Positions 19,139 to 49,222 of a DNA stretch of 64,000 nt are shown here, piece after piece; the stretch's first letter is position 1, and every line of letters starts with the position of its first letter. The stretch covers positions 128,001 through 192,000 of IMG/VR virus record IMGVR_UViG_3300035498_000877. One strand, written 5' to 3'. Source of the stretch: a virus (taxonomy: Duplodnaviria > Caudoviricetes). The position numbers were made by a program, and so were the translations under genes. Under the pieces are notes generated by a model. It was given only the letters and a program-made list of their open reading frames with translations, did no database searches and was not told the DNA's origin.

Positions 19139-21157
19139 TTACGGATTTAAATTCTTATCTTCATACTCTTTGAAATATGTTGTTGGATCTACAGATGAAT
19201 CGGTTACTTGTGCAACTGAATCATAGTAAATATTATTAGGTACTGGATTAACTTCAGATACTTTTGTATATCTTACCCAGATATCATATACTGCATCTTT
19301 CCTATCTCCGATAGACATTGATTCAAAATATAATCCATCTGCTTTCAATGTCACAGTAGCATATGTGTGTCCTGTAATATTTGATCCAGCTAATATACTC
19401 CACTCACTTGGATCTGATTGATACTCCCATGAACCACCAGCTTGGATAATACGGCATGTTGATGAATTAATCATATCAGATATTTTTTCTCTTGATTGAG
19501 AATTAGGTAAATAAGTAATGATACCATAGAATCTCATTATATAAGAATTATCCAATAATGAAGTTTCAAATCCTGGATCAAGTCTTTGTGGATGTATTGT
19601 GTAATCCATTATTGTATCATAATAAATATTACCACCAGGAGTATTTGGATCTGGCCAACCTCCTATAAGAGGTCTTAAATAATCAGCTAATTCTTGTAAT
19701 TTAATCTCATGACTCATTTGTCCAGTCTCATCTTCTGTATTACCAATTACAGTACCCCATTCACATTTTATTTTATCAGGAATAACTGCCTTATCCTGAA
19801 TATGCCTAGTCTCTATAGAATCTGATTTAATGTGATGAGACCATACAGAATTATCCCATATTTCATTTTCTGTAACATAATCAAGATATGCAAGAGTTTT
19901 TAATCCAGGAATTCGTATATCATCCGATATAGTTGTAAGATCATTATTGATATAATATTTAATAGAACCATTTACGGTTCCAGGAAGTATCTTAATTGCT
20001 GTAACATAATTAAAGCTAGCTAAATATTCTTTTGTGCAATATCCTTTAATCAGTTCATTAAATGCAGTATCTAATGATCCATTTGTATTTAATATATCTT
20101 TAACTATATTTACCATATTTAAACTCATACCATCAGTAGAGTCATTAAAGTATTTATTATCAAACTTTGAATATACTCCCATATTAGATATATCCCAAGA
20201 ATATGTTCCATCCTGATTCAATCTACAAATAGCTACTGCATTATATGAATCATGTGTCTTACGAACAAAATATGCTTTCCTATAATATTTAGCTGATGCT
20301 CTAGGAAGATCTACTAAATCTTCAACAACTTGGATATCGTCAATCCAATCTGATATATGCTGTGCAGTACTATCATATGATGTAATTCTATTCTCAACAT
20401 ATTCAACTACAGCTCTTGTAGATGGATAGTGTGAACTATCATTATTTTCAGAATCAGAAAATGCTGAAACTTTATTTGATAAATTTTCCTTTGTTTTAAA
20501 TATATCATAGTGAGCATTATTATCGTCCATATGATTATCCATTGTATCAAGAACCGAACTAACTCTATCATCAAGTGTATTATTAATCTCATCCACTAAA
20601 TCCCATAATTTAACAAGATTTCTACGTATATCTGTATGAGTAGTATCAGCTGTTGAATAATTATGTTTAGCTATTAAATCTGATATTGTATCTGATACGA
20701 CATTATTAATATCCAATTGATCTAATGTAACTGAATGTGGATTATTCGTATTATTGATATGATTATATAATTCTTCCAGATTTACTTTGAAATCATAATT
20801 ACTAATCATATTATTGACTGCTTGTTGTTGTGGACCAGATAATGGTTTATCAATATCAGCAGTATTATCAACTCTTCCAAGACCAACATCTTTAGCAGCT
20901 AATGTAACATCACCCTGTTGATTATTAACTGAAGTTACTGGGAATACAATTGTACTTTGTCCACCAGTTAGAATATCTATTTTCAAATCAGCAAGTATTT
21001 GACGAAGATTTTTATTAGTAGCAGTCTGATCATCAAATACTTGGTCTAATATCGTACTAGGATATATTTGATCAACTTTTGATGAACGTGGGTTATTCTC
21101 ATCTTCCAGAACAAATAAATCTCTCGGCAAATTATTCACAATTCTATTATTAGCCAT
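19139..21157 (-). CDS. Tail fibre-related virion protein
   Basis: PVTSVNNQQGDVTL, GLGRVDNTADIDKPLS, HINNTNNPHSVT and YPSTRAV fibre motifs; AGGAGG RBS. Confidence 0.75.
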   Translation of the reverse strand: MANNRIVNNLPRDLFVLEDENNPRSSKVDQIYPSTILDQVFDDQTATNKNLRQILADLKIDILTGGQSTIVFPVTSVNNQQGDVTLAAKDVGLGRVDNTADIDKPLSGPQQQAVNNMISNYDFKVNLEELYNHINNTNNPHSVTLDQLDINNVVSDTISDLIAKHNYSTADTTHTDIRRNLVKLWDLVDEINNTLDDRVSSVLDTMDNHMDDNNAHYDIFKTKENLSNKVSAFSDSENNDSSHYPSTRAVVEYVENRITSYDSTAQHISDWIDDIQVVEDLVDLPRASAKYYRKAYFVRKTHDSYNAVAICRLNQDGTYSWDISNMGVYSKFDNKYFNDSTDGMSLNMVNIVKDILNTNGSLDTAFNELIKGYCTKEYLASFNYVTAIKILPGTVNGSIKYYINNDLTTISDDIRIPGLKTLAYLDYVTENEIWDNSVWSHHIKSDSIETRHIQDKAVIPDKIKCEWGTVIGNTEDETGQMSHEIKLQELADYLRPLIGGWPDPNTPGGNIYYDTIMDYTIHPQRLDPGFETSLLDNSYIMRFYGIITYLPNSQSREKISDMINSSTCRIIQAGGSWEYQSDPSEWSILAGSNITGHTYATVTLKADGLYFESMSIGDRKDAVYDIWVRYTKVSEVNPVPNNIYYDSVAQVTDSSVDPTTYFKEYEDKNLNP

Positions 21158-29461: not shown

Positions 29462-29493
29462 AAGAAAGAGGGTTTAATAGCCCTCTTTTCTTT
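29461..29493 (+). terminator. Rho-independent terminator
   Basis: AAAGAAAGAGGGT...GCCCTCTTTTCTTT followed by a T run. Confidence 0.7.
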
Positions 29494-29544: not shown

Positions 29545-32529
29545 GTGAATACAGTGAATAGAGATCTTTATTCTAATGACGAATTTACTAATATGAAAAA
29601 AGCCATTAATGAAGAAATGTTACGACGTGGTACATATAGATGGTGGAACCCTTTAACTACTCCTGCAATTGGTGAAGATAAATCTTCTCCCATAATTCTT
29701 GATGAAAATGCAGATAAGATAGAAGTAAATGATAAGACATATACAATCAATAATCCATCTGAAGGATCAATAGAGCCTACTAGAAATATACAATACCCAG
29801 CTCATGGAGAAAATCCTTCTGGAGAAGATCCTAATTATGAAGTTAATTCTCCATCCACTTCAGCAGCTGCTATTAATGTAGATGAGTTTAAAAACTATCT
29901 AGTTGGTCTATCGAAAATCAAAGATATTAATCTTTTTTATGGAAGAGATGAATGCAATTATCTAGCATATAGAGATCCTCAAGGTATACAAGATGTAATA
30001 GAAGATGCCCAGTCAGATGTATTAAATAAACCATTGGCTGAATCAGATAATCCATATATCAAGAATGATCCTAATGGAAAAGTTGCTGATAGGGTAAATC
30101 CATTATATCCAGTATCAGATACATTGGTACAATATCCAAATGAAGATGGTCAATATGTAATGCCATCTGGTGAATATGATGGAGAAGAATTAAAACAATA
30201 TGAGAATATTGGACCTACTAATTTCTATGATGATTATGGAGCACAAGCTGGTGATAGTAATTTCCATCCATATAATAGATATGTATCATTACATACAAGA
30301 AGAGATTGGAATGATCAAAATGATTATAGACAAACTATATCTACATCTAAATTAGAAGGAGGAAAATCATCTATTAGATTTGGTACTAATCCAAGAAATC
30401 CCCAGATGGGTGATCAATATGGATCAAGACCAGTATTTGGTGGAAAAGTAGGATCATGTAATATTGCATGTACTGGTATGTGTTACATGACATGTGATAA
30501 TCAATGCTCAGAATCATGTTCAACAACATGCTGGGCTAGATGTGGAAACTCATGTACAATGTCATGCGGAAATAGTTGTACTGGATGTAGTTCACAATGT
30601 ATGAATACATGTAAAACTAAGTGCGAAGATGCTACAGGATATTCATGTGTTAAATCAGGTGCAATGACAGTAAAGATTGAAACTACAGGTGGAGAAATTG
30701 GAATACCTGCTGAGAATCATATATCATCAACATATCATACATGTGATGGATGTTCATTCAGTTGCCAATTCTATCCGAATAAGAAAACAGAATGTTGGGA
30801 TGCTGGATGCATGGGCAAATGTTTTGTAACATGTTTGAATTCATGCAGTGATTCATGTTTTGGTGGATGTATAAATAATAATCCTTCTGATACAAATGAT
30901 ACCACATATAAAGTAGGTAAAGGAAGAGGATGTTCTTCTGGATGTACATTAAACTGTATTGGAACTTGTAAAGATTCTTGTGTTGGTTATTGCATCACAG
31001 GATGTTTCATGTCATGTATAGCATCATGTGAAGATAATTGTACATTTAGATGTAGTACAATATGTGGAAATGGATGTAATCAAGGATGCACTCAAGGATG
31101 TACAGGGTGTCATTATGAATGTACTGGAGCATGTACTGGACTTTCAGATAGTAGAACATGTGTAGGATGTGGATCTGTTGGCGGATGCACAACTAACTGT
31201 ATGATGGATTGTAATGGAAATTGTATGGCTAGTGGATGTAGATCTATATGTGGTACAGAATCATCTGGAGCTTGTTCATCAAATTGTAGATTGAATTGTA
31301 CAGAATCATCATGTACATCAATGTGTTCAGAAGCATGTAGTACTCAATGTAATACATGCGTAAATACATGTGGACATCAATGTGGAATGTGTAGTTCTTT
31401 ATGTTCTACAGGCTGTGAGTCAGAATGTAATATAACATGTACAGGAGCATGCGAAAATTCATGTACTTCGAATTGTGTAACATCTTGTTCATCAGAATGC
31501 GGTGGATGTTCTAATTTATGCTATTCATGTACAGGAATGTGTATAGGAGTATGTAGTGTTAAATGTGAAGTAACATGTTCTAACTGTGCAGGTCTATGCT
31601 CATGGTGGTGTGATACTCAATGTAATCAAACATGTTTCTCAGATTGTATCAGTAGATGTATCAATAGTTGTTCTGGATCATGTGCAACTTATTTAACATC
31701 AGAAGCTAAAACTACTAAAGGACCTGAAAGAAAACCAACTGCACAAGGATGGAGATATCCAAATCCTTCTAATAGATGGGAAGAAAGAGAATCATTTAAA
31801 TTATTCCATGATGTAGATCCATATAAACGACCTGAAATAATTAAAGAAATATTACCTATTACTATCACAATGGTAAAAGTTAATAAATATGTAATACTTG
31901 AAATGAGTCTTGATAATGTTAGTGAAAATCTTGAGATAATAACAGATATTACAGATACAGATATTATTACTACCAGAGGATCTATTAAGAAGAGCGATAT
32001 CATTAATGCTTATAAATATCATTATGGAAGTTATAGAGTTGAAAGATTATCTAGGATCAATAAATATGAATATGTTTATAGATGGGATATCAATAAATTT
32101 GGAACATTTACTGGAAATAAAGATATTCCATATTGGAATGATGAGAATAATCTAGTAGTAATCACAAATGATTTAATAAAGTACCAGATATATTCAACAC
32201 CATATGTAGCTGGTGTATATGATGTTAATAAAACTACAGGTGAAATTACAGTTAATGATGATGCATTAAATGAATTAATTAATGGAACTCTAATTAATAA
32301 AGATGGCAATCATGGATTATATGTAGTAAAGATATTCCAGAACGAAGAGAAATCTATAACATCAGATATGATATCAATTGATCTTCCATTTGGACTTGAT
32401 ACAATTGGATCAACTGTTGATAAAGATGGAAACTTTATTATTATAATTCGTGAAACTGTATTTTTATTAGAATCAGAAAAGGAGGAACTAGAAGCAAATA
32501 ATGGGCAAGATAAAGGAAGTACTGTATGA
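29545..32529 (+). CDS. Giant Cys-rich CXXX-repeat protein
   Basis: About 88 Cys (hand count) in 409 aa at nt 30457-31683, mostly C-x-x-x spacing, flanked by Cys-poor N- and C-terminal regions; GGAGG RBS. Confidence 0.85.
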   Translation: MNTVNRDLYSNDEFTNMKKAINEEMLRRGTYRWWNPLTTPAIGEDKSSPIILDENADKIEVNDKTYTINNPSEGSIEPTRNIQYPAHGENPSGEDPNYEVNSPSTSAAAINVDEFKNYLVGLSKIKDINLFYGRDECNYLAYRDPQGIQDVIEDAQSDVLNKPLAESDNPYIKNDPNGKVADRVNPLYPVSDTLVQYPNEDGQYVMPSGEYDGEELKQYENIGPTNFYDDYGAQAGDSNFHPYNRYVSLHTRRDWNDQNDYRQTISTSKLEGGKSSIRFGTNPRNPQMGDQYGSRPVFGGKVGSCNIACTGMCYMTCDNQCSESCSTTCWARCGNSCTMSCGNSCTGCSSQCMNTCKTKCEDATGYSCVKSGAMTVKIETTGGEIGIPAENHISSTYHTCDGCSFSCQFYPNKKTECWDAGCMGKCFVTCLNSCSDSCFGGCINNNPSDTNDTTYKVGKGRGCSSGCTLNCIGTCKDSCVGYCITGCFMSCIASCEDNCTFRCSTICGNGCNQGCTQGCTGCHYECTGACTGLSDSRTCVGCGSVGGCTTNCMMDCNGNCMASGCRSICGTESSGACSSNCRLNCTESSCTSMCSEACSTQCNTCVNTCGHQCGMCSSLCSTGCESECNITCTGACENSCTSNCVTSCSSECGGCSNLCYSCTGMCIGVCSVKCEVTCSNCAGLCSWWCDTQCNQTCFSDCISRCINSCSGSCATYLTSEAKTTKGPERKPTAQGWRYPNPSNRWEERESFKLFHDVDPYKRPEIIKEILPITITMVKVNKYVILEMSLDNVSENLEIITDITDTDIITTRGSIKKSDIINAYKYHYGSYRVERLSRINKYEYVYRWDINKFGTFTGNKDIPYWNDENNLVVITNDLIKYQIYSTPYVAGVYDVNKTTGEITVNDDALNELINGTLINKDGNHGLYVVKIFQNEEKSITSDMISIDLPFGLDTIGSTVDKDGNFIIIIRETVFLLESEKEELEANNGQDKGSTV
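30457..31683 (+). repeat. C-x-x-x periodic cysteine repeat region
   Basis: e.g. CNIACTGMCYMTCDNQCSESCSTTC...CFSDCISRCINSCSGSC. Confidence 0.9.
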
Positions 32530-32770
32530 AGAAATTGATGAATCTATATATTCAAATAAAGATGCATCAGAATTTCAATTTCTATATAATATGATGGATA
32601 GTGGATATATGAATGAATATGAAGAATTTGAAAAACGTCAATTGGAAGTTAGAAATAAAATATTGAAAACATTATCTGAAGCATCAGGTAATATATCAAA
32701 TTCTAATTCATCAGTTATTTTAGGCACATCAGATTATAATAAGAAAGTAGTTTTAATTTGTGACTTATAA
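32501..32770 (+). CDS. Small acidic protein coupled to the Cys-rich gene
   Basis: AAGGAGG upstream; overlaps the upstream stop; followed by a terminator. Confidence 0.65.
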   Translation: MGKIKEVLYEEIDESIYSNKDASEFQFLYNMMDSGYMNEYEEFEKRQLEVRNKILKTLSEASGNISNSNSSVILGTSDYNKKVVLICDL

Positions 32771-32772
32771 AA

Positions 32773-32801
32773 ATAAGAGGAAGCATTTAGCTTCCTCTTA
32801 T
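32773..32801. terminator. Bidirectional terminator
   Basis: ATAAGAGGAAGC-ATTTA-GCTTCCTCTTAT. Confidence 0.75.
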
Positions 32802-34250: not shown

Positions 34251-37200
34251 ATGGGACTTATTGGACGTAGTATAGAGCAAACCAGAATTTGGATAGATCC
34301 ACATCCAGATCCTGCTCCATCGTTAAATTATAAAGAAGTATTTCCGTATACTACATTAGATGCTGTATATGATGATATGAATAATGTTCCAGATGGTGTC
34401 AACCTTAGAACTATTTTGGAAGAAATAAAATCAGAATTATCTCAGAAGCAAACTAAAATCCCTGGAAAATCAGCCAATTACATAATGACATTTGCCGGAA
34501 CTCAAGGTGCTGTGGGTGCTATTCAAATGAGTAGGGAAATACCATGGGATCCAAATAAACAGAGTCATGATAAAATTCCTACCGAAAAAGCAGTTGGAGA
34601 ATTAATCAGAAAACTTGGACTGGTTGATGCTAATGGAAATGTTATTGAAGACAGTGCAGCAATACATTGGTCAGATATAATTGGAAGACCTTTATTATAT
34701 GAAGATACTGGAAATAATGATGATGGATTTATGACCCAGAAAGCTGTTTCAGAACATCTTGCTGATATTAGAACGGACTTAGCTGATCTATATAATGATA
34801 CATCTGGTAAACTGGAAACTGCAATAGAAGCAATTACTTCTCATTCTAATAATAAAAATAATCCTCATAATGTTACAGTTAGCCAGATTGGTGCTGTAAG
34901 TGAGGAGGAATTCAATAATCATCTTATTTCAGATACTGCACATATTCCATCACAAGTTGGACTTGGTAATGTGGATAATACATCAGATATGGATAAACCA
35001 ATATCTACTGCAGCTCAAAAAGAATTTGATCAGATTAATACTGTATTGAAAACTATACAAGATGATGATACATTTATTCATACTATTGATTATTCAATTG
35101 AAACAGGAGTAATGACTGTATCATATTTAAATGGTGTTACTAAAACCATGAATATTCCTATTAATGGAACATGTGTTGATATTGAATATGACAGAGATAC
35201 CAAGAATCTTGTATGGACAGAATTATCTGGAGAAGTTCATAATGTCAGTCTTCTTGATCTATTTACGGTATATGAAGGTGGGACTTCTGATAATATTACG
35301 GTATTAATTGAGCCTGATGAATTGAAAAATGCTGGATTTAACTATGGCAATACAAATTCCACTTCAGATGGATTCATTGAATTAGTTACTAAGGAAATTA
35401 ATAATCTTTGGAATAAAGGTGAAATGCCAGCAAATGCCGATGATGATGCAGATAGCCCAGGTATTGGTCAGATTTCTACACAACAAACTGATGACATGTG
35501 GGAATCAAGTATATTACCTGATGAAAGTGGTACTGAGCAAATTACAACTCGTATTTCATTGACAAATGACGAGATTGAAGATCTGTGGTATAATGCAACA
35601 TTACCAAATGAAGAAGCTGATGAATATGATGAAGTTGCAACATCTGATATTGGATATGCAGGATATCAAGTAATCACAGCATATATCAATGCTCACTCAA
35701 TTACTGAAAATGAAATTTCAGATGGTGCAATCAATACTAGAGTATTAGGTGATGAATCGGTAACAACTATCAAGATTGCTAATTCAGCAGTAACTACTAA
35801 TAAATTGGCAAATGCAGCTGTCACTAATGAAAAGATTGATAATTATGCTATATCAAATAAAAAGATTGCAAATAGAGTTGTTGATGGAAGAACTCTATTT
35901 ACTTCTAATAAGAGTAATAGAGTACTTGCAGTTGGAACAAACAATACTGATCCATCATGGGTACAGGTTAATACTGATATGATTGAAAATAATTCAATTA
36001 CTAATGAAAAATTAGTAACTGGATCAGTATCAACTGCTAAGTTGCAAGATAAATCAGTTACAACTAGTAAACTTGATGATAGTTCAATTACTAATGAAAA
36101 GATATCAGCTAGCTCAATTACAACTGATAAGATTCAGAATGGAACTATATTAGGTGAAGATTTTGCAAAGAATATTGTTATTCCTGGAACTCCATCTATT
36201 ACAGTTAGACCTGATACAGGAGATAACTCAACTAAGATTCCTGATACACATTGGGTTACACAGACAATAGATAATTTTGTATTTGATACAGATAACTATG
36301 GAGACAGAACTGTTACAGGTGCTAAACTATTTACATCAACAACAAGACATAGAGTACTTGGTGTATTGAGGGCAAATACAGATCCAGAGTGGGTTCAAGT
36401 TGATAATGATATGGTTGCTAATGATGCTATCAGTACAGTTAATCTTATTGACAAAGCTGTTACTGGTAGTAAGATTGCCAATGAAACAATTACTGATACT
36501 AATTTAGCAAGTAACTCAGTAACTACAGCGAAGATTGCTGATAGTAATGTAACACTTGATAAGATTGAACCTCATCATACTGCTAATAGAGTTATTGCTA
36601 CAATTGCCGATAATGCTAATCCAATATATACTCAAGTCAATAATGATATGATTGCAAATAATGCAATTAATGCAGCTAAGGTTCAAGATCAATCATTATA
36701 TCCATCTAAGGTACAACCATCTTCAACAGCTAATAGAGTTCTCACAACTACATTAGCTAATGCTAATCCATCATGGACTCAAGTAAATAATGGTATGATC
36801 GCTGATAGAGCTGTAAATGGTTCCAAATTATTCACAACATCAACTCCTTATTCTATACTTGGAATTACAACCCAAGGAACCGATGCAGTATGGACTAAAT
36901 TACTTGCTGATATGTTGGGTGATAAAGCTGTTACAAATAGAGCTATTGATGATAATGCTATATCGAATAATAATATGCAGACTGATTCTGTATCAGAGGA
37001 TAATATTATTGATGGATCTGTTACTGCTAATAAGATAGGTGAAAGAGCTGTAGAAGGACGTCACCTATTTACTTCGGAAAATCCTAATATGATATTAGCT
37101 GTTACTAGTGTTCCATATACAAATGCAGTATGGTCTAAAGTAACATCAGAGATGATTGATGATAGAGCAGTTACAAGAGAGAAATTATTTAGTGATCCAA

Positions 37201-38414
37201 CTCCTTATACAGTAATTGGTATTACTGAAGAAGATGGTGTTCCTGAATACTTAAAGATTAGAAATGAATTTATTGAAGATGATACAATTCTTCCCAATAA
37301 ATTAACTCGAGACTTTGTATTATATGGAACTCCACAGTTAACAATATCACCAGCTGACGATGCTGATAATCATCAATTAGCAGATACACAATGGGTACGT
37401 CAAACCATTGATTCATTATTAAAAGACTTTGATTATATCTATGGAACTGTAGATGAAAAGATGATCAAAGATTATAATGTAACTGGAAAGAAATTATACT
37501 TGAATGAGTATAAGGGACCTAGAGTATTAGGATCTACAAACTATCATGAAGAAGCTGAGTACTTATTAGTCGAAGGCGAAATGATAGCTGATGGTGGAGT
37601 TACTGAGAATAAGATTCAGAGAGATGTTCACTTATTAGGATCTCCTGGAATCGAATTGAGACCTAATACTGATGCTTCAGATTCAACTGGTGAAGGTCAT
37701 CTTATTCCTGACTGCCAATGGGTTATTGATCGTATTAATGATGCTGGTGGCAACTTGGGTACAAGTAGTTCATCTTCTGCTACAGTTGGAACAGTAGCTG
37801 ATGAAGGAATTACAACAAAGAAGTTACAGAATAGAGCTGTTACTGGTGCTAAGTTATTTACAACTCCAACAGCTGATCGTGTATTAGCAGTACTATCTTC
37901 AAATGCTGATCCTGAATATACTCAAATTAATCATAATATGCTTGAAGATAGAATTATTGAAGGAAATAATCTATTTACTACTGATACAGTAAATTCTATT
38001 CTTGCAGTTACTAAAGCAAATGGAGATTCAGTATGGACAAAGATTGTTACTGATATGATTACTGATAAAGCTATTACAACTGAAAAGATCAATGATAACT
38101 CAGTAACAAATGCTAAGATTGTAAATAAATCTATTACTAGAGAAAAACTTGCAAATGAGGCAATGATTGGAAATGATCTATTGCAGGATAATTCTGTATC
38201 TACAACAAAGATTCAGGATAGTGCAGTAACTACAGCAAAGATTGCTGATGGTAATGTAACAAGTGAGAAGTTAGCTTCTGATCTTGTATTACCAGGCCAT
38301 CCAACAGTTAGCTCAGATGCAGGAATTGGTACCAGATCTCTCAGATGTGTTGTTATATCTCCTAATGAACCATCAGGTGGAGAGAGTGGTGATATCTGGT
38401 TTAGATATGTATAA
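34251..38414 (+). CDS. Long tail fibre protein with (A/S)VTTxKI(A/D)D beta-helix-type repeats
   Basis: Many 10-aa xSVTTxKIxD repeats interspersed with LFTSxxxxRVLxV units; NPHNVT and GLGNVDNTSDMDKP motifs; C-terminal PSGGESGDIWF. Confidence 0.85.
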   Translation: MGLIGRSIEQTRIWIDPHPDPAPSLNYKEVFPYTTLDAVYDDMNNVPDGVNLRTILEEIKSELSQKQTKIPGKSANYIMTFAGTQGAVGAIQMSREIPWDPNKQSHDKIPTEKAVGELIRKLGLVDANGNVIEDSAAIHWSDIIGRPLLYEDTGNNDDGFMTQKAVSEHLADIRTDLADLYNDTSGKLETAIEAITSHSNNKNNPHNVTVSQIGAVSEEEFNNHLISDTAHIPSQVGLGNVDNTSDMDKPISTAAQKEFDQINTVLKTIQDDDTFIHTIDYSIETGVMTVSYLNGVTKTMNIPINGTCVDIEYDRDTKNLVWTELSGEVHNVSLLDLFTVYEGGTSDNITVLIEPDELKNAGFNYGNTNSTSDGFIELVTKEINNLWNKGEMPANADDDADSPGIGQISTQQTDDMWESSILPDESGTEQITTRISLTNDEIEDLWYNATLPNEEADEYDEVATSDIGYAGYQVITAYINAHSITENEISDGAINTRVLGDESVTTIKIANSAVTTNKLANAAVTNEKIDNYAISNKKIANRVVDGRTLFTSNKSNRVLAVGTNNTDPSWVQVNTDMIENNSITNEKLVTGSVSTAKLQDKSVTTSKLDDSSITNEKISASSITTDKIQNGTILGEDFAKNIVIPGTPSITVRPDTGDNSTKIPDTHWVTQTIDNFVFDTDNYGDRTVTGAKLFTSTTRHRVLGVLRANTDPEWVQVDNDMVANDAISTVNLIDKAVTGSKIANETITDTNLASNSVTTAKIADSNVTLDKIEPHHTANRVIATIADNANPIYTQVNNDMIANNAINAAKVQDQSLYPSKVQPSSTANRVLTTTLANANPSWTQVNNGMIADRAVNGSKLFTTSTPYSILGITTQGTDAVWTKLLADMLGDKAVTNRAIDDNAISNNNMQTDSVSEDNIIDGSVTANKIGERAVEGRHLFTSENPNMILAVTSVPYTNAVWSKVTSEMIDDRAVTREKLFSDPTPYTVIGITEEDGVPEYLKIRNEFIEDDTILPNKLTRDFVLYGTPQLTISPADDADNHQLADTQWVRQTIDSLLKDFDYIYGTVDEKMIKDYNVTGKKLYLNEYKGPRVLGSTNYHEEAEYLLVEGEMIADGGVTENKIQRDVHLLGSPGIELRPNTDASDSTGEGHLIPDCQWVIDRINDAGGNLGTSSSSSATVGTVADEGITTKKLQNRAVTGAKLFTTPTADRVLAVLSSNADPEYTQINHNMLEDRIIEGNNLFTTDTVNSILAVTKANGDSVWTKIVTDMITDKAITTEKINDNSVTNAKIVNKSITREKLANEAMIGNDLLQDNSVSTTKIQDSAVTTAKIADGNVTSEKLASDLVLPGHPTVSSDAGIGTRSLRCVVISPNEPSGGESGDIWFRYV

Positions 38415-39684: not shown

Positions 39685-41189
39685 ATGAGTAATAAATTTA
39701 TTGGTACCAATTCAATTCGTGATTTAGTTAAATTAAGTAAAAAGGATAGTAAAGACAGAATAGAAAAACATTTAAGTGATACAAATCCACATAATATTAC
39801 TAAATCTACAATTGGATTGGATAATGTGGAGAATTATAAAGCACTGAGTACTGAGGTACAAGAACTTACTGATAATGAAAAAGATATAGTTAAAAGTAAT
39901 TTGGGCATAGATGATTACATTTCTGCAATAATTAATGATGTAATTAATGAAATGATGTAGTAACAGGTGTATTTGGTTTTAGTATTGATCAAACACAATC
40001 AGATCCATCATCAATGATATCATATATAGAAGGTACAGCTAATGAAAACTATACAGCAGTACATATGGATTATGATAATGATGTATTTGATTATGGAGAT
40101 TGGGGTAATGTTTGGTTTATTAAAAATCTAAGACCATGTATGCTTAATTATGATGGTACTGAAGCATATCTATTAGATCCTAATGATTATACAAAGAAAG
40201 CAGATGGTACTGATTCAGATATATCAGATAGTACATTTGATGGAAATGTAATGGTAGGAATACCTAAAGTGTATTTTAAAATAGTACCTATTGATGATGA
40301 TCATTGTAATTTTTATTTCTCAGATAAAAAAGTAGATGATAATTATCATTGCTGGGCTCACATAAATAATTATGGTGATGAAATACCATATTGTTACTTA
40401 TCTGCATACGATGGATCATTGGTGGATAGTAAACTACGCAGTATTAGTGGATTAATGCCTGAATTAAGAGGTATTAACACACTTCAAGAATTTATAGCTC
40501 CAAATAATCAAAATGATGATAATATTTGGTCTATGAATACATATAGTGATTGGTTATTAATAGTACTATTAGGTTTATTAATATCTAAAACAACAAATTC
40601 ACAAACATCATTTGGATTGGGACATTCAAATGGATCTAGTACTAGTAACACGTATAAAGGATGTATTAATTGTGGATTAGCTAATGATAAAGGATTATTT
40701 TGGGGTACAAATGTAACTGGAAGTCCAGTTAAAATATTTGGTATTGAAAATTTCTGGGGTCAATACTATAGGTTTATGCTAGGAGCAATTTATAGTAATG
40801 GTATCCAGAAAATAAAACTTACATATGGCACTCAAGATGGTTCTACTGTAGAAGGATATAACCTAACAGGTAATGGATATATCACAATAGATGATTCTAC
40901 TGTATCAGGCACAGTCTCATCATATAATTCTAAATATAATTCAGGATATTTATTACAATTAGCATTTACTGAAGAAGGTATTTTTATTAAAAAAATGGAT
41001 GAATCATCTGATTATAAATCATTATATTATGATACATCTTCAATATATTTGAATGGCGGTACATATATTATGACTTCTAGTAATTATTATTACAATAAAA
41101 ATGATATAAGTATAGTGACTTTATCTGGATTTATAAGTTATGATTCTCAGAATATTTCATATATTAAATGTTTACCAAAAGTTAATTAA
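39685..41189 (+). pseudogene. Receptor-binding protein with Mtd/C-type-lectin-like domain, split by a 1-nt frameshift at ~39950
   Basis: ORF1 (39685-39960) carries NPHNIT..IGLDNVEN fibre motifs. The frame of ORF2 stays open back to 39951 (NDVVTGVFGFSIDQTQSDPSSMISY) and has no RBS. ORF2 carries DGNVMVGIPK and FGIENFWG motifs. Confidence 0.6.
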
Positions 41190-41224: not shown

Positions 41225-44200
41225 TTAATCTAGATCATATTCTTGTTGTATTTCTATTATTGAAGATTTTTTTGTTTTTGAATTAATTTGTAATATGTGA
41301 TTATCTGCAACCATATATGCGGCTAACTCTAAATCATGAACTTGGTTACCATATTCATCATATAATCTAGCAGCCATTCCATAATATTCATTAGCAGATA
41401 TAATTACATGTGTTGATACCTGTCCAGACTTAATCTCGTCAGCCCACTCACTATTCAGCATATTAACAATCATTTCATCTGATATTGGAGCTAATCCAAA
41501 ATCTTCAAAATCCATTGTTTGATCTAGTATAGCTTTTCCCTCTAATGTAGGTAAATCAGATACTGTATATTGATAATTCTGATTACTCAAACTTCCAGTA
41601 CTAGAAGTTCTTACAAGTATATCATCATCCGTATCAACATTTGGAGGATAATTTTTAAAGTCTTTATTATCTTCATCTACTTGTTGCCATACAGGAGTTA
41701 ATAAATATTCTTGTTCTGTATCTGAATAATTATCTCCATCTAGTACAGCTTCAAGCACGTCATCAAGATAAGTTCTATAATTCCATCTTACATATGATCT
41801 GTTTATTTCATTAGATTCTACATAAATGAAATCATCAGCAAAATATTCATTTGAATCTCTATTAATTTCTATTATCTCAAGATTCTTTAATGAAGTTAAT
41901 CCATGCATAAAAAATTTAGTTGGTGATATAATAGTAACTTCATCATTCAGTAATTTTCCATTAACCCAGAATTCAAAATGTTTTTTGTCCAAAGGCTTAT
42001 TAAGTCTTCCACCAAGATCAATATATCCTGATTCTGGAATAGTTCTTAATGTATATACAGATCTCATTGGATATGGAGTAGAGCAAATCATTAAATGTTC
42101 ATATGCAACATATGTATTCAAGAAAGTTACATCAGTTCCATCTCCATTTATCTCTGCATATAGTGTGGGTTTATTTGTTGAAGGATTTATTAATGGAAAT
42201 CTTCCCTTATCAGTTAATACATATAATCTATCAGTCTGTATTGAGACATTATCAAGATGAAAGGTTATATATGATTCTGAGTCAGGTCTTATGAATGTCC
42301 ATTTTTGAGGTGTCTTATCAATGATAACTTTATAGTCAGCAGTATCAGCTACATCATATTGAACTATTACTTGGAATTCATTTGGTATTATAGCCATTCT
42401 ATTAGATACTTCATGGATATATCCATCTCCAAATACTTCAACCTTTTTAGTCTCAAACTCAATAAGTATAGTAGCTGATTGATTCATTGTTTGATCATCA
42501 TTCTGGAATACAGTAAATTCCATTGACATATTTTCATTAGGAGCATTGATTGTGTGTATTGGAGTAAATGTTAATATATGTCCATCTTCCAAGAAATCAG
42601 AAGTTACATATCCAAATACATGTACATCATATGTTGCATTGTATGCCCAGACATCTCCATTATTAAATCCACTACCAGAAGTTCCAATTACTGACTGCAC
42701 AATAGTAGTTTGGGTTTCCCATCCATGACCTTTTGATTTATCATCTTTAAATCTAACTTCAAATTTAGATCTATCAAGTATATCCTCAAATCTACCAGCT
42801 GTCTCATTGTATATCTTTATATCCTCTAAATGTATTTCATTTTTGTAATATTGATATTCAGGTATTTTGACGTTCATTATATATCCCAAGGTACTATCAT
42901 CTTCATTTGGATATCCAATTTTAAATGATTGCTCAAAATAGAATGGGAATAATTTTCTTATGCGTAGATGCCTACCTGTATTAACTATTGTATTCTTTGC
43001 AGCTTTATTTACATAATCATATACTGTAGTCTCAATATTAAGTACTGCATTTCTTTTCAGTTTCTCATTCTTTATCTGAGTAGCTACAGTTTTATTCAGA
43101 TATAAAGCCATATCATAAGTATATTTTCCTTTACCAATATATGACAATGTAAATCCATACTTATGATTTTTTTCATCTTTTGTTACTTCTAATTTCCATT
43201 TATCTGTATCTGATAAATCTTCCCAATCTTTTGTAGTCCAGTTGAATACTGATATATCATCAATTGTAATATCATCAATATAAGTATTAGTACCATATTC
43301 AAGTCCTTCATATGCTACTTGATGTTTTTCATCAGTAATCTCATGTTGAACTTCATTGAATGTTACTGCTGTATTCCATGGTGCAGTTGGATACTGTGAT
43401 TTTAATGAAGGATAATCGGAAATCCAATCATCTGATAACCAGTTAACTACAAACTTATTCCACTTATAGTCAGCATACTCTGGTAGTTCATATATAATAT
43501 ATCCAGTGACTGCAAATGATCTGACTTTATATAACATTCTATGACCTTGATGTGTTTCATCTGATTCTACAATAACATTCTTACCAACTGATACATTTTT
43601 AAATTGTGAATAATATCTAGGAAGATCTTCATATGATGCACATGTAAAATCAGCTTTAACTTGAGCTGCATTCAGTACTGATGTTTCAGGCCATTCAGTT
43701 ATATTAGTATTATTGATATTTTTTGAATTATGAATTCTTACTTGTTGAATTAATTGATATTCGCCTTTGAATGGTTGATTCATTGGTACTATTTCTGGAT
43801 CTTCTATAAAAGGATCTGTTGGAGGTACAGTTGTTTGAATTCCATTCCATCTCTTTGTATCATCATATCTAGTACCTTGATACCAGTGATAATCCTGATC
43901 ACCATTTTGAGGAGCTTCTTCAACATCATTAATATCAACATCTCCAAACATAAATGTACTATTATATTCTGAACTATTAAATTCATCATCGATATTATTA
44001 AAGGTATCTGTAACTACTTCAGCATTAGGATTACCTGGATCTAAATCTTTAAATGTCAGACCACTTTCAAGTTCTACCTGTGATATTCCTTTATAAGGAT
44101 CATTTGTTAATTCAGATACAAACATATGAAGTGTTGTATTTTCACAATCAGTATATACTTCTTGACCAACAGTATATCCAGCACCTGGATCCACTACTTT

Positions 44201-47200
44201 TATATCTTCAATTCTATATACATAATATTGCTCTGCTGGTTCAAACAATGATGAGTTTTGTAAATCAGCTACTGAGTTGGCATTAACATAGATACTATCA
44301 ATACTTCCATCTGTTACTACATTGAAGTCAGTTATTTGTTTACCAGCTAAAAATACTTCATATTGAATATCTAAGTCATGTGTATTTTCAAATTGATATA
44401 CAAGATTATCAGTATCATTAAATTGATTGGCATTTGTTTTATCAGATGTATCATCATATAAAATAGTATTATCTGTAATATCAACTTGTTTTGATGATAT
44501 AAGTATACATAATCCAGATCCTATACCAACATCTTTCTTAGTTTCATATAATCCTGTAATATCATATTTAATTGCATATTGCAATAATGGAGTTACTGAT
44601 GTTACTACTCCCTTTTCTATTGAAGATACTAAGAAATAGAATTTATCTTCAAACTTATCTGATACTAATTCAACTATATCTCCAATTGAATATCCTGTTC
44701 CACCAATAGATGCTGCTGATGATTCTATTCTATACCAAGTATCTGATATATAGTCATATGGTATATCATTTATTCTATTATCTATTGCTTTTATTAATGG
44801 ATCTATATCAATTCTATATAATGGAAGATCATCAATTGCTGAATCAATAATCGTTACTTGTTTTATTACATTAGATGCTGTTTCTGAGAAAGTGATTGAT
44901 TCATCTTCTATATTATTAAGTATTTTATTCTTGTAAACATTTACACTCATTGATAGAGCATCTGCTAAATATCTAATTGATTTACTATCATCCCATGCAG
45001 AATTATCAATCAGAAAGTTTGATAAATTTGTACAAGACTCTTTCACTAACTCATAGTAATTAATATAAGCTTCATCATCAAGATTATTTTCTGCTATATA
45101 AGTATATGATTCATTGAGTAAAGTTTCAGTATCAGATAGTAAACCTGAGACATCAATATTTTCTCTACAATCAATATACTCTTTCATTTGCGAACATAAA
45201 TCAATTAATTTATCATATGTCTCTTCTATGTACTCTAACAAATTAGTACTAATATAAGATCCATATTTCTTAATTAAAGAACTCCATTCTTGATATGACT
45301 CTTTTGCATCATCAATATCATCTTGTAAATCAATATTTAATTTTGGATCATATGTTTCTATATTAGTTTCAATAGATAATATGATATTAGTAATCTTCAT
45401 TACATATCTATCTACTGCATGATCATTCATAATTTTTTCATGAGTTACTGTTAGTGGTTTAATAGTAATACCTAATCCTGGACCATCTGATATAGAATCA
45501 TATAAATTATTTTGCCATAATGGATTTCTAAAACTTGTAGCAATATCATCAATAAATTCAATTGACTTAGCTTTGTTGATATTCCCTTCTACTTCAGTAA
45601 TCTTATATACACCTATATTTTTGACATATATAATATCATTAATATCATGATCAAATCCACCTGTTACCAATTCAATAGTATCAATTTTATATACATCTGA
45701 ATATGTAGGCTGATCACTATCTGGTATATATTCAGTATCTATAGTATTTAGATATTCAATAATTGCATTAAACAATTCTGAGTACTCATCAAGTTTTCCA
45801 AGTATATCTTTTTCAGGATTTACAACTGAATCAAGTGTATTAAATGTATTCTCTTCTTCATCTAATAGTATTTTCCAAGTATCAAGTTGATTCTTTAAAT
45901 CACTCAAACTATTAAGTGCTAATGTTTGATTATCATCATTTGATCCTGATAAATATGATAGAAATGACTTTATTGAATCTCCATATAATTTAATCGTATC
46001 AAATACTTTTTGTTCACTTTCTGTCCATGGAAGTTTATCACTATCAATAATAGCATATAAATTATTCAATGATTGTACAAATGTGTCTCGATAAACTAAA
46101 TATGTTGATATGTCAGTAATCATAGATTCTAGTACTTCATCACAATAACTTAGTTTATCTAATATGGCATCATCTTGATCATATCCAAAATTCTTCCAGT
46201 AATCAATTAATACTAATTTGAGATTATGAATATCATTATCACTAGTATTTATATACTCCATTATATTACCAATCATTTCATCAGAGTAACTAATATTTGG
46301 AACAAATGTACCAAATAATTTTGATGTTGATTGGAATAATAAATTTCTAGCAGTTTTTACTTCATCTGACCATGGGTACTCAAATTGATTAATATCATAT
46401 ATTAAACTAGTATCATCAGGATTTTCTTTTTGGAATATCATTAGTGTTTTTAAGTTATTAATCGTATCCATAAACTTATTCATATCTACTGAATAACTCT
46501 TTTCAAATACTGCATTAATTTGTTTTTCAAATCCATCTGATATAAATACTGCTTCTTGATATTCTTCTAGTTTATCTTCATATACTTTATGATTATTATT
46601 GTCATTATATACTTCAGCAATTACTGATTTTATGGAAGCAAATAATTCATTATATTTATTCATCATTGCAGTAATATCATTTATCTGATCAATAGTAAAT
46701 GTATTAGTATCCAGATCATATATAGTCTTTATAATAGTACCAAGTAATGATTGCATTTCAAATAATTGATCTTTGATCTCAATAACATTATCAGTATTTA
46801 ATTGATAATCATTTCTTTCTAATACATCAATTACATTTACCAGATCATGATATACATTCTGTATTACATTATCTACTTCAAGTTCAACTCCACTAATAGT
46901 AGGAAGGAATTTATCAGTATCAAATGATTCTCTTGGTCTTCTAGCAGTATGTGATGAGAAATCATAGTTATCAGTAATCTTAGCAATGTAATCAAAGTAT
47001 GATGGAGTCCATTGTTTATTTAAGTACTGCTCAAAATTAGTTACTTTCTGATATCCTAACCAATTTAAATTGATGGCTTCTTTCATCTTATCAATTGCAT
47101 CATCAAATGGAAATTCATTATTACTATTTTTCAAGTACGTAGCTAATCCTAATTTGTAATATGGATCCATAGTATTCAGGAATAAATCATTAAACCTTTG

Positions 47201-49222
47201 ATATGATGGATTATCTATTACATGCTCTATAGCTTCATATCTATAGTTGGTAGTAGTAAGTCCTTTGTATATTGATTGTATACCCATCCAATAGAACTTC
47301 TCCATGAAGATTTCTCTAAATGTACCTTCTTTTTCATACTCAAACTGGTTCATATCATCATCCCACGATGCAGTAGCTCTAGTAATTGGAATAGTCTCTT
47401 TATTCACATTGATAGTATCAGTATAGAAAAAGAATGCTTTAAATATTCTATTGGATATAGAAGTACTATCATCAGTTTCTGATAATAAATATACATCAGG
47501 AAAATGATGTTCTACATTTAATATGTATGGTCTCCATACTTCATTATTTGAATCATATTCAAATGTCCAGAAATCAGTAGTATCTATAGGTCTTTGAAAT
47601 CTGATAGTACCTTCTAATCCAGATTCCCATAAATCCTTCTTTTTCATTCCACTCAGTATAATAGATACATAGTACTTATCTACTATCTGCTGAGGAATAT
47701 AAATTAGTGGTGATAAATAAAACCATAAAGTTAGACTTTCATCTCTATTAGGTGTATCTTGATCATCTAACCACTCACTATATATTCCATCTTTCTTAAT
47801 TTCTTTAACAGTCTCTAGGAACTCCTCATACTTAGTATCATATTCATCATTATGATCAATCTCTAGTACATCAAGAAACTGATTATATGCACTATAAATA
47901 TTTCCTAAATCTGTTTTAAGTTTTTCTAACCACGTATTTAGTACTTCATCATTATTATTTACTTTAATATCAAATCTAAAGTCTTCAATAGTATCAGCAC
48001 CTATAACAATTAAGTTCCTTAATTTATCAAGGTATGAAATGTACTCATTATCAGCATCATCTCGTTCATATTCAAATGCATCTGATAGTACTACTGGTCT
48101 TATCATTTCTTTAGTTTCATCATGTGATTCTTTCATACCATTATTCATATCAACATAAATATTTCTATTTGCTCCTGATGATCTGAATTTACCATATACT
48201 TCCTTACTTATTTCATGATTAATAGTTACTACTTTCTGGAAGTCAGCTAAGTATGGTCTATTGATAACATCAGTTGGTAGTAGTATAGGAAACTCATGAA
48301 GAAATTTAGGTACAAATACGGATAGCCATAAGTTCTGTTCAGATGTTGTTTCTGATAGTATTAGGTTTCTATTGTACTCACTCATTTCAGATAAATCAAT
48401 ATATCCATCTTCAATAGGTAGAAATTCCATATTATCACCTAATACATCAACTGATGTAACATCATCTGTTCTATATCCTGAATCATTACTAACTTTATTT
48501 ACAGTAATAACTACTTTGGATGAATTACGTATATGATCATTAGTTAAATATGATACAGGTAATTTCCATCCCCATATTTCTTCACATTGATATCTACTAA
48601 TGAATACTCTACATGATGCATTGGTATCAAATTTATATATGTATATAGGAAAATTAGCTTTCTTCCAGTAAGTATTATAGTTCCATCTAATAGTAACTTC
48701 TTTATCATCTATTCTAATCTCGTACTCTGAATATACTCTTTGATTTACAAACATCATACAGAACCATTTGAATTTATCCCAATTATTAAGCATATCTTCT
48801 ACTTTAATCCATTTACGGAAGTACTGAGATAATTTAAATTTATCTCTCATATCAGATGATATAAAGTTTTCTGTTGGTATAATAATAGAACACGTATTAG
48901 ATGATATATCTATATCCACGTCTTTCATAGTACAATTCCATTGAAAGAAATGTGTATTATCATGATTATTTGCTTTTAATTTATGAGATGAATTTAAATA
49001 GATATCTTTTAATGTTTCTACTACTTTATCTTGACTAAATGTATTAGTAGTAATTGCATCTTTTCTAAATGCACTTGATCTAGTTCCATCATAATCAGGA
49101 ATTTCATATCCTTCACTAATTAATGTATTTCTATTGAATAATTGATCAGCTGTACTAATATTTTGATCAAATGCTTTTTGGTACCATTCTGGATCAAATG
49201 GACTCCATTTATTTTCATACAT
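41225..49222 (-). CDS. Very large (2665 aa) virion structural protein
   Basis: AGGAGG RBS; long helical middle region; repeated GG.GY..GD-type beta units; C-terminal GYIDL.G.LNKPL...FWVNG. Confidence 0.7.
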   Translation of the reverse strand: MYENKWSPFDPEWYQKAFDQNISTADQLFNRNTLISEGYEIPDYDGTRSSAFRKDAITTNTFSQDKVVETLKDIYLNSSHKLKANNHDNTHFFQWNCTMKDVDIDISSNTCSIIIPTENFISSDMRDKFKLSQYFRKWIKVEDMLNNWDKFKWFCMMFVNQRVYSEYEIRIDDKEVTIRWNYNTYWKKANFPIYIYKFDTNASCRVFISRYQCEEIWGWKLPVSYLTNDHIRNSSKVVITVNKVSNDSGYRTDDVTSVDVLGDNMEFLPIEDGYIDLSEMSEYNRNLILSETTSEQNLWLSVFVPKFLHEFPILLPTDVINRPYLADFQKVVTINHEISKEVYGKFRSSGANRNIYVDMNNGMKESHDETKEMIRPVVLSDAFEYERDDADNEYISYLDKLRNLIVIGADTIEDFRFDIKVNNNDEVLNTWLEKLKTDLGNIYSAYNQFLDVLEIDHNDEYDTKYEEFLETVKEIKKDGIYSEWLDDQDTPNRDESLTLWFYLSPLIYIPQQIVDKYYVSIILSGMKKKDLWESGLEGTIRFQRPIDTTDFWTFEYDSNNEVWRPYILNVEHHFPDVYLLSETDDSTSISNRIFKAFFFYTDTINVNKETIPITRATASWDDDMNQFEYEKEGTFREIFMEKFYWMGIQSIYKGLTTTNYRYEAIEHVIDNPSYQRFNDLFLNTMDPYYKLGLATYLKNSNNEFPFDDAIDKMKEAINLNWLGYQKVTNFEQYLNKQWTPSYFDYIAKITDNYDFSSHTARRPRESFDTDKFLPTISGVELEVDNVIQNVYHDLVNVIDVLERNDYQLNTDNVIEIKDQLFEMQSLLGTIIKTIYDLDTNTFTIDQINDITAMMNKYNELFASIKSVIAEVYNDNNNHKVYEDKLEEYQEAVFISDGFEKQINAVFEKSYSVDMNKFMDTINNLKTLMIFQKENPDDTSLIYDINQFEYPWSDEVKTARNLLFQSTSKLFGTFVPNISYSDEMIGNIMEYINTSDNDIHNLKLVLIDYWKNFGYDQDDAILDKLSYCDEVLESMITDISTYLVYRDTFVQSLNNLYAIIDSDKLPWTESEQKVFDTIKLYGDSIKSFLSYLSGSNDDNQTLALNSLSDLKNQLDTWKILLDEEENTFNTLDSVVNPEKDILGKLDEYSELFNAIIEYLNTIDTEYIPDSDQPTYSDVYKIDTIELVTGGFDHDINDIIYVKNIGVYKITEVEGNINKAKSIEFIDDIATSFRNPLWQNNLYDSISDGPGLGITIKPLTVTHEKIMNDHAVDRYVMKITNIILSIETNIETYDPKLNIDLQDDIDDAKESYQEWSSLIKKYGSYISTNLLEYIEETYDKLIDLCSQMKEYIDCRENIDVSGLLSDTETLLNESYTYIAENNLDDEAYINYYELVKESCTNLSNFLIDNSAWDDSKSIRYLADALSMSVNVYKNKILNNIEDESITFSETASNVIKQVTIIDSAIDDLPLYRIDIDPLIKAIDNRINDIPYDYISDTWYRIESSAASIGGTGYSIGDIVELVSDKFEDKFYFLVSSIEKGVVTSVTPLLQYAIKYDITGLYETKKDVGIGSGLCILISSKQVDITDNTILYDDTSDKTNANQFNDTDNLVYQFENTHDLDIQYEVFLAGKQITDFNVVTDGSIDSIYVNANSVADLQNSSLFEPAEQYYVYRIEDIKVVDPGAGYTVGQEVYTDCENTTLHMFVSELTNDPYKGISQVELESGLTFKDLDPGNPNAEVVTDTFNNIDDEFNSSEYNSTFMFGDVDINDVEEAPQNGDQDYHWYQGTRYDDTKRWNGIQTTVPPTDPFIEDPEIVPMNQPFKGEYQLIQQVRIHNSKNINNTNITEWPETSVLNAAQVKADFTCASYEDLPRYYSQFKNVSVGKNVIVESDETHQGHRMLYKVRSFAVTGYIIYELPEYADYKWNKFVVNWLSDDWISDYPSLKSQYPTAPWNTAVTFNEVQHEITDEKHQVAYEGLEYGTNTYIDDITIDDISVFNWTTKDWEDLSDTDKWKLEVTKDEKNHKYGFTLSYIGKGKYTYDMALYLNKTVATQIKNEKLKRNAVLNIETTVYDYVNKAAKNTIVNTGRHLRIRKLFPFYFEQSFKIGYPNEDDSTLGYIMNVKIPEYQYYKNEIHLEDIKIYNETAGRFEDILDRSKFEVRFKDDKSKGHGWETQTTIVQSVIGTSGSGFNNGDVWAYNATYDVHVFGYVTSDFLEDGHILTFTPIHTINAPNENMSMEFTVFQNDDQTMNQSATILIEFETKKVEVFGDGYIHEVSNRMAIIPNEFQVIVQYDVADTADYKVIIDKTPQKWTFIRPDSESYITFHLDNVSIQTDRLYVLTDKGRFPLINPSTNKPTLYAEINGDGTDVTFLNTYVAYEHLMICSTPYPMRSVYTLRTIPESGYIDLGGRLNKPLDKKHFEFWVNGKLLNDEVTIISPTKFFMHGLTSLKNLEIIEINRDSNEYFADDFIYVESNEINRSYVRWNYRTYLDDVLEAVLDGDNYSDTEQEYLLTPVWQQVDEDNKDFKNYPPNVDTDDDILVRTSSTGSLSNQNYQYTVSDLPTLEGKAILDQTMDFEDFGLAPISDEMIVNMLNSEWADEIKSGQVSTHVIISANEYYGMAARLYDEYGNQVHDLELAAYMVADNHILQINSKTKKSSIIEIQQEYDLD

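Follow-up and report, generated by a model that had tools for sequence, protein, structure and literature searches.

Radical S-adenosylmethionine (SAM)/SPASM maturases are known for producing small modified peptides, the ribosomally synthesized and post-translationally modified peptides (RiPPs). One such enzyme family, TIGR04115, is defined by targets built from CXXX repeats (TIGR04114), and a canonical cellular locus of this kind, in genome G313 (locus L041), encodes a maturase scoring 510 bits, a TIGR04116 protein, two peptides of 75-79 residues with about 12 CXXX units each, and an ABC exporter. This locus was the only match in 400 further same-phylum genomes sampled around genome G005 (2 of 401 counting G005). 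Here we describe a far larger cysteine-repeat protein, of 994 residues, encoded at positions 29545-32529 (+) of a 64,000-nucleotide stretch (the window) of a Caudoviricetes virus, IMG/VR record IMGVR_UViG_3300035498_000877. A preliminary description made from the letters of the window had proposed that a CXXX radical SAM target, known from short peptides encoded with an accessory protein of about 90 residues (a picture that G313 bears out), might here be scaled up to a phage protein of ~110 kDa, and had pointed to the rest of the genome for a radical SAM/SPASM gene.

By score, the characterized family nearest to the enzyme is PapB, which links the thiol of a donor Cys to an acceptor that follows it four residues further on (CSAND), with a change of -2 Da per link, and which acts repeatedly on one substrate (PMC12373016). 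The viral genome encodes its own TIGR04115-type maturase, and the two genes stand together in all related loci, so that the scaled-up target is strongly supported. We propose, with a probability of about 0.7, that the Cys-repeat protein is a protein-sized substrate of this dedicated phage-encoded maturase, likely thioether-linked and tail-associated. Enzyme family and repeat were already catalogued; the new elements are a protein-sized, fixed-register target with two terminal domains, an 89-residue partner, a tail context, and the fused N-terminal domain and intein of the maturase.

The cysteine-repeat protein and its family

The window corresponds to G000:C1:128001-192000 of the 289,234-bp viral record, a jumbo phage of gut type, which is 100% complete according to CheckV and has a GC content of ~29%. 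The Cys-repeat gene starts with GTG behind a GGAGGTG Shine-Dalgarno sequence, and its product has a mass of 108.9 kDa. A recount reproduced the preliminary description exactly: 88 of the 89 Cys lie in residues 305-713 (30457-31683), the N-terminal 304 residues hold a single one (C137), and the C-terminal 281 residues hold none. As also described there, an acidic open reading frame (ORF) of 89 codons overlaps the end of the gene, by 29 nt, and the pair is bracketed by terminator-like hairpins of its own. This second ORF has its own AGGAGG, and its product has an isoelectric point of 4.6, with 16 acidic against 10 basic residues. The features of the unit are as follows.

29464..29489, + strand: terminator-like hairpin, 11-bp stem and T tract; ends the upstream gene, before the two-gene unit
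29545..30456, + strand: N-terminal domain, residues 1-304; block modelled by AlphaFold2 (AF2), seen only fused to a CXXX core
30457..31683, + strand: Cys core, residues 305-713; 88 Cys in C-x3-C or C-x2-C register, presumed maturase substrate region
31684..32529, + strand: C-terminal beta-rich module, residues 714-994 plus stop; variable, swappable among relatives
32501..32770, + strand: acidic partner ORF, 89 residues, coupled in translation; follows the Cys-repeat gene directly in every sampled relative
32773..32801, both strands: bidirectional terminator-like hairpin, 12-bp stem on both strands with T tracts; closes the unit and a convergent 446-residue gene

The register of the core is strict, with 68 Cys-Cys spacings of 4, nine of 3 and three of 5, whereas 2000 shuffled cores contained a mean of 8.2 spacings of 4 (standard deviation 2.7, maximum 19). 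Between the Cys stand chiefly S, T, G and N. The DNA of the core does not form a recent tandem array; just four tiny arrays of 2.0-2.6 copies were found in it. Genome-wide, the 18-position repeat model TIGR04114 gave six matches, all inside the Cys-repeat ORF, and no other CXXX-repeat ORF was found in the genome by this search. These matches are weak, the best (18.0 bits) staying under the cut-off of 20. Orthologues reached 23.4 and 20.2 bits with neighbouring repeats summed, and hmmscan of the whole 994-residue protein reported nothing for TIGR04114. All homologues carry PF27846 (tSAM_targ_Cxxx_rpt, the Pfam form of TIGR04114), with faint or weak precomputed matches. Scans of the protein against Pfam, NCBIfam and PHROG returned nothing except a weak match to phrog_6085, a PHROG without assigned function.

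Related loci were reached via the maturase, and further contigs via the protein family. Searching with the non-repetitive N-terminal domain retrieved at least 154 clusters of 711-1346 residues on large phage contigs, many of them 250-298 kb long, with 83-100 Cys per protein (median 89). In an alignment of 88 sequences with 49-62% identity to the 994-residue protein (P0002), conservation of the core Cys is complete at 79 of the 88 positions and at least 90% at the other nine, while the three intervening positions vary and are rich in S, T, G and N. The core contains exactly 88 Cys in six of eight genomes compared; among these eight, mean identity is 57% for the N-terminal domain, 67% for the core and 39% for the C-terminal module, the length of which ranges from 25 to 281 residues. 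When 1.84 billion representatives were searched exhaustively by profile, the N-terminal domain turned up in only 25 proteins, each non-fragment having a CXXX core of 42-105 Cys; within these sequences, the domain was never found without the core. No relatives were found among viral contigs with 8-mer patterns of the N- or C-terminal domain, and GenBank phages gave zero matches to the locus at the DNA level or by tblastn.

Fourteen Cys-repeat proteins of 1244-1346 residues (P0011, P0019, P0021, P0023, P0027, P0033, P0042, P0065, P0093, P0095, P0117, P0120, P0121 and P0123) carry Hint/LAGLIDADG inteins. These occupy at least seven sites, about 309, 313, 325, 506, 616, 655 and 670 in the numbering of the 994-residue protein, all within the core and beside a conserved Cys.

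Structure prediction, suggested in the preliminary description, yielded models of the two terminal domains and none of the core. In the AF2 model, the predicted local distance difference test (pLDDT) score of the N-terminal block is mostly 60-88, with a dip to ~40-50 near residues 221-241, and the beta-rich C-terminal module reaches 70-96; AF2 failed on the Cys core, at ~25-30. Fold searches with the full model gave nothing significant (best Foldseek E 0.02, best VIA Z 3.9), and in an atlas look-up of the C-terminal domain all leads were below 0.9.

The maturase and its linkage to the repeat gene

The whole genome, translated in six frames and searched with TIGR04115, gave one strong match, an ORF of 746 codons at G000:C1:69564-71804 (-). 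It lies 88 kb upstream of the target gene, 58 kb before the start of the window and on the opposite strand. It scores 330.4-333.3 bits over model positions 5-359 of 359, against a curated cut-off of 350. Its intein-free orthologues score 363.1 and 353.2 bits, above the cut-off, and 335.3 and 329 bits, below it; the phage maturase clade therefore straddles the cut-off. The intein described below was considered as the cause of the low score and ruled out, the 329-bit orthologue (L008) being intein-free. TIGR04117, TIGR04118 and TIGR04119 gave only weak cross-matches in the genome, inside the maturase and target genes.

In hmmscan, the next family after TIGR04115 is PapB at 141 bits (141-159 bits across the maturase and its orthologues), followed by HxsB, CcpM, the quinohemoprotein amine dehydrogenase maturase and the SCIFF maturase. 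These top-scoring characterized families form Cys-based cross-links, and the strict i, i+4 register of the core mirrors the donor-acceptor spacing of PapB. Both points speak against the maturase acting on the thiols in another way, such as formylglycine-like oxidation, C- or S-alkylation or installation of bound clusters, or against modification of a few sites with the rest holding Zn, Fe or disulfides. Such chemistry would nevertheless agree with the absence of a conserved acceptor residue between the Cys, with a core for which, as for metal-dependent domains, AF2 gives no fold, and with a SPASM clan that includes the Cys-oxidising anaerobic sulfatase maturases, to which the enzyme has a weak match (TIGR03942); the literature searched, moreover, holds no published chemistry for the TIGR04115 family. 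On balance we consider it unlikely, and cross-linking by the maturase the better account.

The maturase has an extra N-terminal domain of ~195 residues, matching no family, and SPASM-type Cys in a C-x2-C-x5-C-x2-C motif at 650-662, with more Cys at 582, 600, 616 and 681. Its cluster motif, C192-x3-C-x2-C, is intact only after removal of residues 196-343. This insertion (G000:C1:70776-71219; L001:2554-2997 (-)) comprises 148 residues without an endonuclease and stands before the second Cys of CxxxCxxC. It starts with Cys196, contains T270-x-x-H273, ends with H342-N343 and is followed by Cys344 at +1. It matches Hom_end_hint at E = 5.8e-7 (30.2 bits; cut-off 32.1), with weak matches to Hint and Intein_splicing. 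Orthologues in L008, L010, L031, L053 and L055 lack exactly residues 196-343 and read C-x3-C-x2-C, with lengths of 602-604 residues in L010 and L008, whereas those in L009, L011/L030, L032, L052 and L054 have the insertion, with a LAGLIDADG domain in L052. Because of the Hint similarity, the catalytic residues and the seamless alignment with orthologues lacking 196-343, we regard the insertion as a mini-intein in the active site. Inteins at this site and at no fewer than seven sites of the target core are expected of conserved, important sequences. In the maturase of L032 (L032:6727-7617, 890 aa), this active-site position holds two intein-like segments in tandem.

Co-occurrence in related phages, another check raised by the preliminary description, was found throughout. 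IMG/VR relatives of the maturase share 71-75% identity with it, and each record also encodes a Cys-repeat protein of 59-62% identity. In 11 of 11 related loci (L008-L011, L030-L032 and L052-L055), the maturase precedes the Cys-repeat gene by 0.03-2.7 kb, both being on one strand; since L011 and L030 encode identical proteins, ten of these loci are independent. The common order is a tail-fibre-like gene, the maturase, 0-4 small or variable genes, the Cys-repeat gene and an overlapping ORF of 83-93 codons. L055 has the same downstream genes as the window, a 440-residue gene (-) and then a 1384-residue fibre gene, but with the maturase upstream, and this arrangement indicates that the 88-kb separation is a derived rearrangement. 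After it, the target kept the 89-residue ORF next to it, and the maturase kept a tail protein of phrog_5302 as its neighbour.

The pairing also occurs in smaller phages. The small human-faecal phage MT835573.1 (L039) encodes a 193-residue CXXX protein, a 94-residue ORF and a maturase in a tail-fibre cluster, where a phrog_5302 tail protein (E = 3e-77) is also encoded. On a contig of a Bacillota metagenome-assembled genome (MAG; L028), tail PHROGs lie upstream of the maturase and a 225-residue CXXX protein downstream. In CACZGA010000053.1, from an Erysipelotrichaceae MAG (L029), reading TAG as Q gives a 95-residue ORF, the maturase and a 312-residue CXXX protein, with in-frame TAG codons in the maturase (12-15), in a 644-residue upstream ORF (19) and in the CXXX protein (9). 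With code 4 the ORFs remain broken, and TAG=Q is the right reading. Given this recoding, the contig probably belongs to a recoded phage that was binned with a bacterial MAG by mistake. The nearest "cellular" relatives of the phage maturase (L028, L029) are themselves phage-like.

The 88-kb distance in this genome, together with four other radical-SAM-type genes, could be read to mean that the Cys-repeat protein is a structural protein of ordinary kind, rich in disulfides or metal, and that only chance links the radical SAM gene to it or that the enzyme has another target. We consider this highly improbable in view of the adjacency in 11 of 11 related loci, an enzyme family that is itself defined by CXXX-repeat targets, the same pairing in unrelated small phages and in the cellular RiPP locus, and the lack of another CXXX-repeat ORF in the genome.

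Two further groups of radical-SAM-type genes were observed. A second cluster at L051:2185-6146 (G000:C1:114185-118146) comprises a HemN-like gene (372 aa) and two generic ones (269 and 326 aa) and converges on a 337-residue gene with weak resemblance to Peptidase_U32, homologues of which stand between maturase and target in L008, L009 and L055. At G000:C1:243168-243680, a 170-residue ORF (27 bits, PF04055) adjoins a 587-residue ORF; it is probably an anaerobic ribonucleotide reductase activase, which fits an anaerobic host. The suspected host is a Bacillota anaerobe.

Partner protein, tail setting and possible product

The 89-residue ORF is a real gene. Its position directly 3' of the Cys-repeat gene is kept in every sampled locus (sizes 83-93 aa), and its similarity is detectable by BLAST in six of 11 loci, at 21-34% identity, with conserved N-terminal (M-G-K-I-x-x-V-x-Y) and C-terminal (V-L-I-x-E) ends. 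The preliminary description had suggested, from size and position, that it might be a TIGR04116-like accessory factor. This assignment did not hold: the size fits that family (~90 aa), yet the gene follows the target and not the enzyme and travels with the target, and TIGR04116 matched neither the protein nor the six-frame genome at E <= 10. The same model readily found, as a positive control, a 101-residue ORF of G313 (E = 4.5e-10, model positions 2-88 of 90). Kinship with the ~95-residue ORFs beside the L029 and L039 maturases was likewise rejected (hhalign probability 0.1%), as was kinship of the N-terminal extension of the maturase with the ~95-residue ORFs beside other maturases (0.1%). 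Pfam, NCBIfam and PHROG contain no family for the 89-residue protein, returning only FliL and OmpH at chance level.

AF2 predicts a beta-alpha-alpha-beta-beta fold for it (pLDDT 76.6). Fold searches with this model returned nothing significant, and a trigger-factor N-domain entry among them (E = 0.56, Z = 4.3) is not evidence. A complex prediction with the N- and C-terminal domains scored 0.02 against a mark of 0.32, which says nothing for or against binding. Co-variation is weak and similar for the N-terminal (rho 0.44) and C-terminal (rho 0.40) domains. A chaperone role specific to the C-terminal domain was dropped, the ORF persisting where that module has 25 residues. Its coupling to the target and not to the enzyme suggests that the 89-residue protein is a stoichiometric partner of the target, as an assembly or holding factor.

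Tail genes lie beside the target as well as beside the maturase. The maturase is followed by a gene (L001:3-1271 (-); G000:C1:67970-69493) for a phrog_5302 tail protein (E = 2e-59), of which at least four paralogues exist in the genome: this one, window 40014-41189, G000:C1:281702-282889 and 287934-289094. PHROG matches place tail or tail-fibre genes in the window at 19139-21157, 34251-38414, 40014-41189 and 49320-50471. Two of them lie downstream of the unit.

34251..38414, + strand: 1387-residue tail-fibre gene; phrog_892 tail fiber, E = 3e-45, with the same gene after the cassette in L055
40014..41189, + strand: phrog_5302 tail protein; paralogue of the gene following the maturase, G000:C1:67970-69493

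Also among the tail genes, at 41225-49222 (-), is an ORF of 2,664 codons with no PHROG match at E <= 0.001.

From this gene context, the Cys-repeat protein is likely tail-associated, and its conserved N-terminal domain and swappable C-terminal module have the layout of a tail-fibre-like host-recognition protein. A maturase substrate that never enters the virion would instead be a protein-sized RiPP-like product acting in the infected cell or after lysis. It might, for instance, serve as a sponge (metal or redox), act against competitors or be a defence decoy. The canonical cellular system does make short exported peptides beside an ABC transporter, the terminal domains match no tail-fibre family or fold, and the neighbours include a helicase and non-structural genes here and a 5'-3' exonuclease downstream in relatives. 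We nevertheless judge such a product improbable: no exporter or signal peptide was seen; here, as in jumbo relatives and in small phages unrelated to them, tail or tail-fibre genes flank target and maturase; and fibre proteins typically combine a conserved N-terminal domain with a swappable C-terminal one.

For a tail-associated maturase substrate, the following course can be envisaged. The maturase would be made and its intein spliced out, which would restore the [4Fe-4S] site. The ~195-residue extension of the enzyme, a helix in the N-terminal domain of the target, or both, might then bring the two proteins together. This helix, at residues ~11-27, is conserved, with invariant R27 and R28. 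When a profile of residues 5-45 was searched against 677 ORFs, the CXXX protein of L039 ranked first (E = 1e-5) and that of L028 second (E = 4e-3), while the match to the L029 CXXX protein was not significant. The L039 and L028 proteins share a motif of the type D-F-x-x-L-K-x-x-I-x-x-E-x-x-R-R, found at 29578-29637 of the window (residues 12-31), L039:5436-5495 and L028:3937-4005, and placed N-terminal of the repeats in the 994-residue protein and L039 and C-terminal in L028. This points to a helix with two invariant Arg common to CXXX-repeat proteins that otherwise have no relationship, and it may be a recognition element for the maturase.

The enzyme would subsequently move along the 409-residue core and convert many of the 88 Cys thiols to covalent links, most likely intramolecular thioethers by analogy with PapB, SCIFF or sactipeptide maturases. 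Since conservation is lacking between the Cys and position i+4 is itself Cys throughout, possible acceptors are backbone alpha-carbons or the following Cys. Such linking would yield a rigid rod or knot, resistant to proteases and reduction, between the conserved N-terminal domain and the swappable C-terminal module, in a tail-fibre-like host-recognition layout; it would be made in an anaerobic gut host. In a bolder and rather unlikely version, the links would form a continuous thioether ladder from each S to residue i+4, the next Cys, with most Cys being both donor and acceptor, giving a protein-sized RiPP as the enzymatically stapled shaft, proof against reduction and proteases, of a jumbo-phage tail fibre. 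If true, radical-SAM-installed cross-linking would be seen here for the first time in a virion protein, and on the largest known substrate of a radical SAM peptide maturase, recognised via a folded N-terminal domain and not a leader peptide.

Several observations weigh against a protein-sized, thioether-linked, tail-associated substrate. The maturase of this genome lies 20 bits below the curated TIGR04115 cut-off, single TIGR04114 repeats reach 18.0 bits for a cut-off of 20, and neither a TIGR04116 nor a TIGR04119 protein was found in the six-frame genome. Maturase and target are 88 kb apart on opposite strands, and the interrupted enzyme would need intein splicing, which we infer from its sequence, to bind its cluster. 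The searches revealed no resemblance of the terminal domains to known tail-fibre folds or PHROGs; with a helicase and other non-structural genes nearby, virion location is argued from gene context. Since the literature searched contains no published TIGR04115 chemistry, "thioether" is used here as an analogy; a search covering this chemistry, phage CXXX proteins, and phage SPASM with Cys-rich proteins found nothing relevant.

With these reservations, an enzyme family known from small peptides seems to have, in widespread gut phages of ~290 kb, a 109-kDa protein of several domains with 88 fixed target sites as its substrate. If true, RiPP-type chemistry would extend to structural proteins, and phages would have a new way to harden a probable host-recognition organelle in a protease-rich, reducing gut. 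The system would also offer a tractable, highly repetitive substrate for working out TIGR04115 chemistry, and rods of stapled Cys ladders would be attractive for use as stable scaffolds made of protein.

Comparison with known systems

The closest described system is the CXXX-repeat system of NCBIfam, with which the phage locus shares the maturase family (330 bits here, 353-363 for orthologues, 510 for G313), the C-x3-C repeat and the neighbourhood of enzyme and target genes (11 of 11 phage relatives). The targets differ in scale: ~75 residues and ~12 Cys in the canonical case (75-79 residues in G313), against 994 residues with 88 fixed Cys between folded domains (as modelled by AF2) in the phage. 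The canonical locus has TIGR04116 and an ABC exporter, both of which the phage system lacks; the phage system alone has the ~195-residue N-terminal domain and intein of the maturase, a different, target-coupled protein of ~90 residues, and a setting among tail genes.

The small-phage and prophage CXXX systems (L039, L028, L029) use the same enzyme family, at 300-423 bits, with a repeat that matches phrog_6085, and stand in a tail-fibre module as in the jumbo phage. Their CXXX proteins are shorter (193-312 aa, ~25-60 Cys) and lack the jumbo N-terminal domain, C-terminal module and 89-residue partner. The ~95-residue ORF before the L029 and L039 maturases resembles TIGR04116 in size and position, although that of L029 gives no match at E <= 0.01.

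PapB, with its substrate PapA (freyrasin), is the second-best family for the phage maturase (141-159 bits), SCIFF/CteB and CcpM being related. Its i, i+4 donor-acceptor spacing is that of the phage Cys register. PapB depends on a leader peptide and on an acceptor that is acidic or a C-terminal carboxylate, whereas position i+4 in the phage core is Cys, with no conserved acidic acceptor, and the phage substrate is ~20 times larger.

Intein-containing radical SAM proteins are known from the NF038136 (Rv2578c) family, which likewise has a Hint-type intein in a radical SAM enzyme. That is another radical SAM family, and the phage intein lies inside CxxxCxxC and is present or absent among close orthologues. 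Finally, the HK97 capsid forms a chainmail by autocatalytic isopeptide cross-links. The shared idea is a phage particle protein stabilised by covalent cross-links; HK97 achieves this autocatalytically in the capsid, while here a separate radical SAM enzyme would act on the Cys of a probable tail component.

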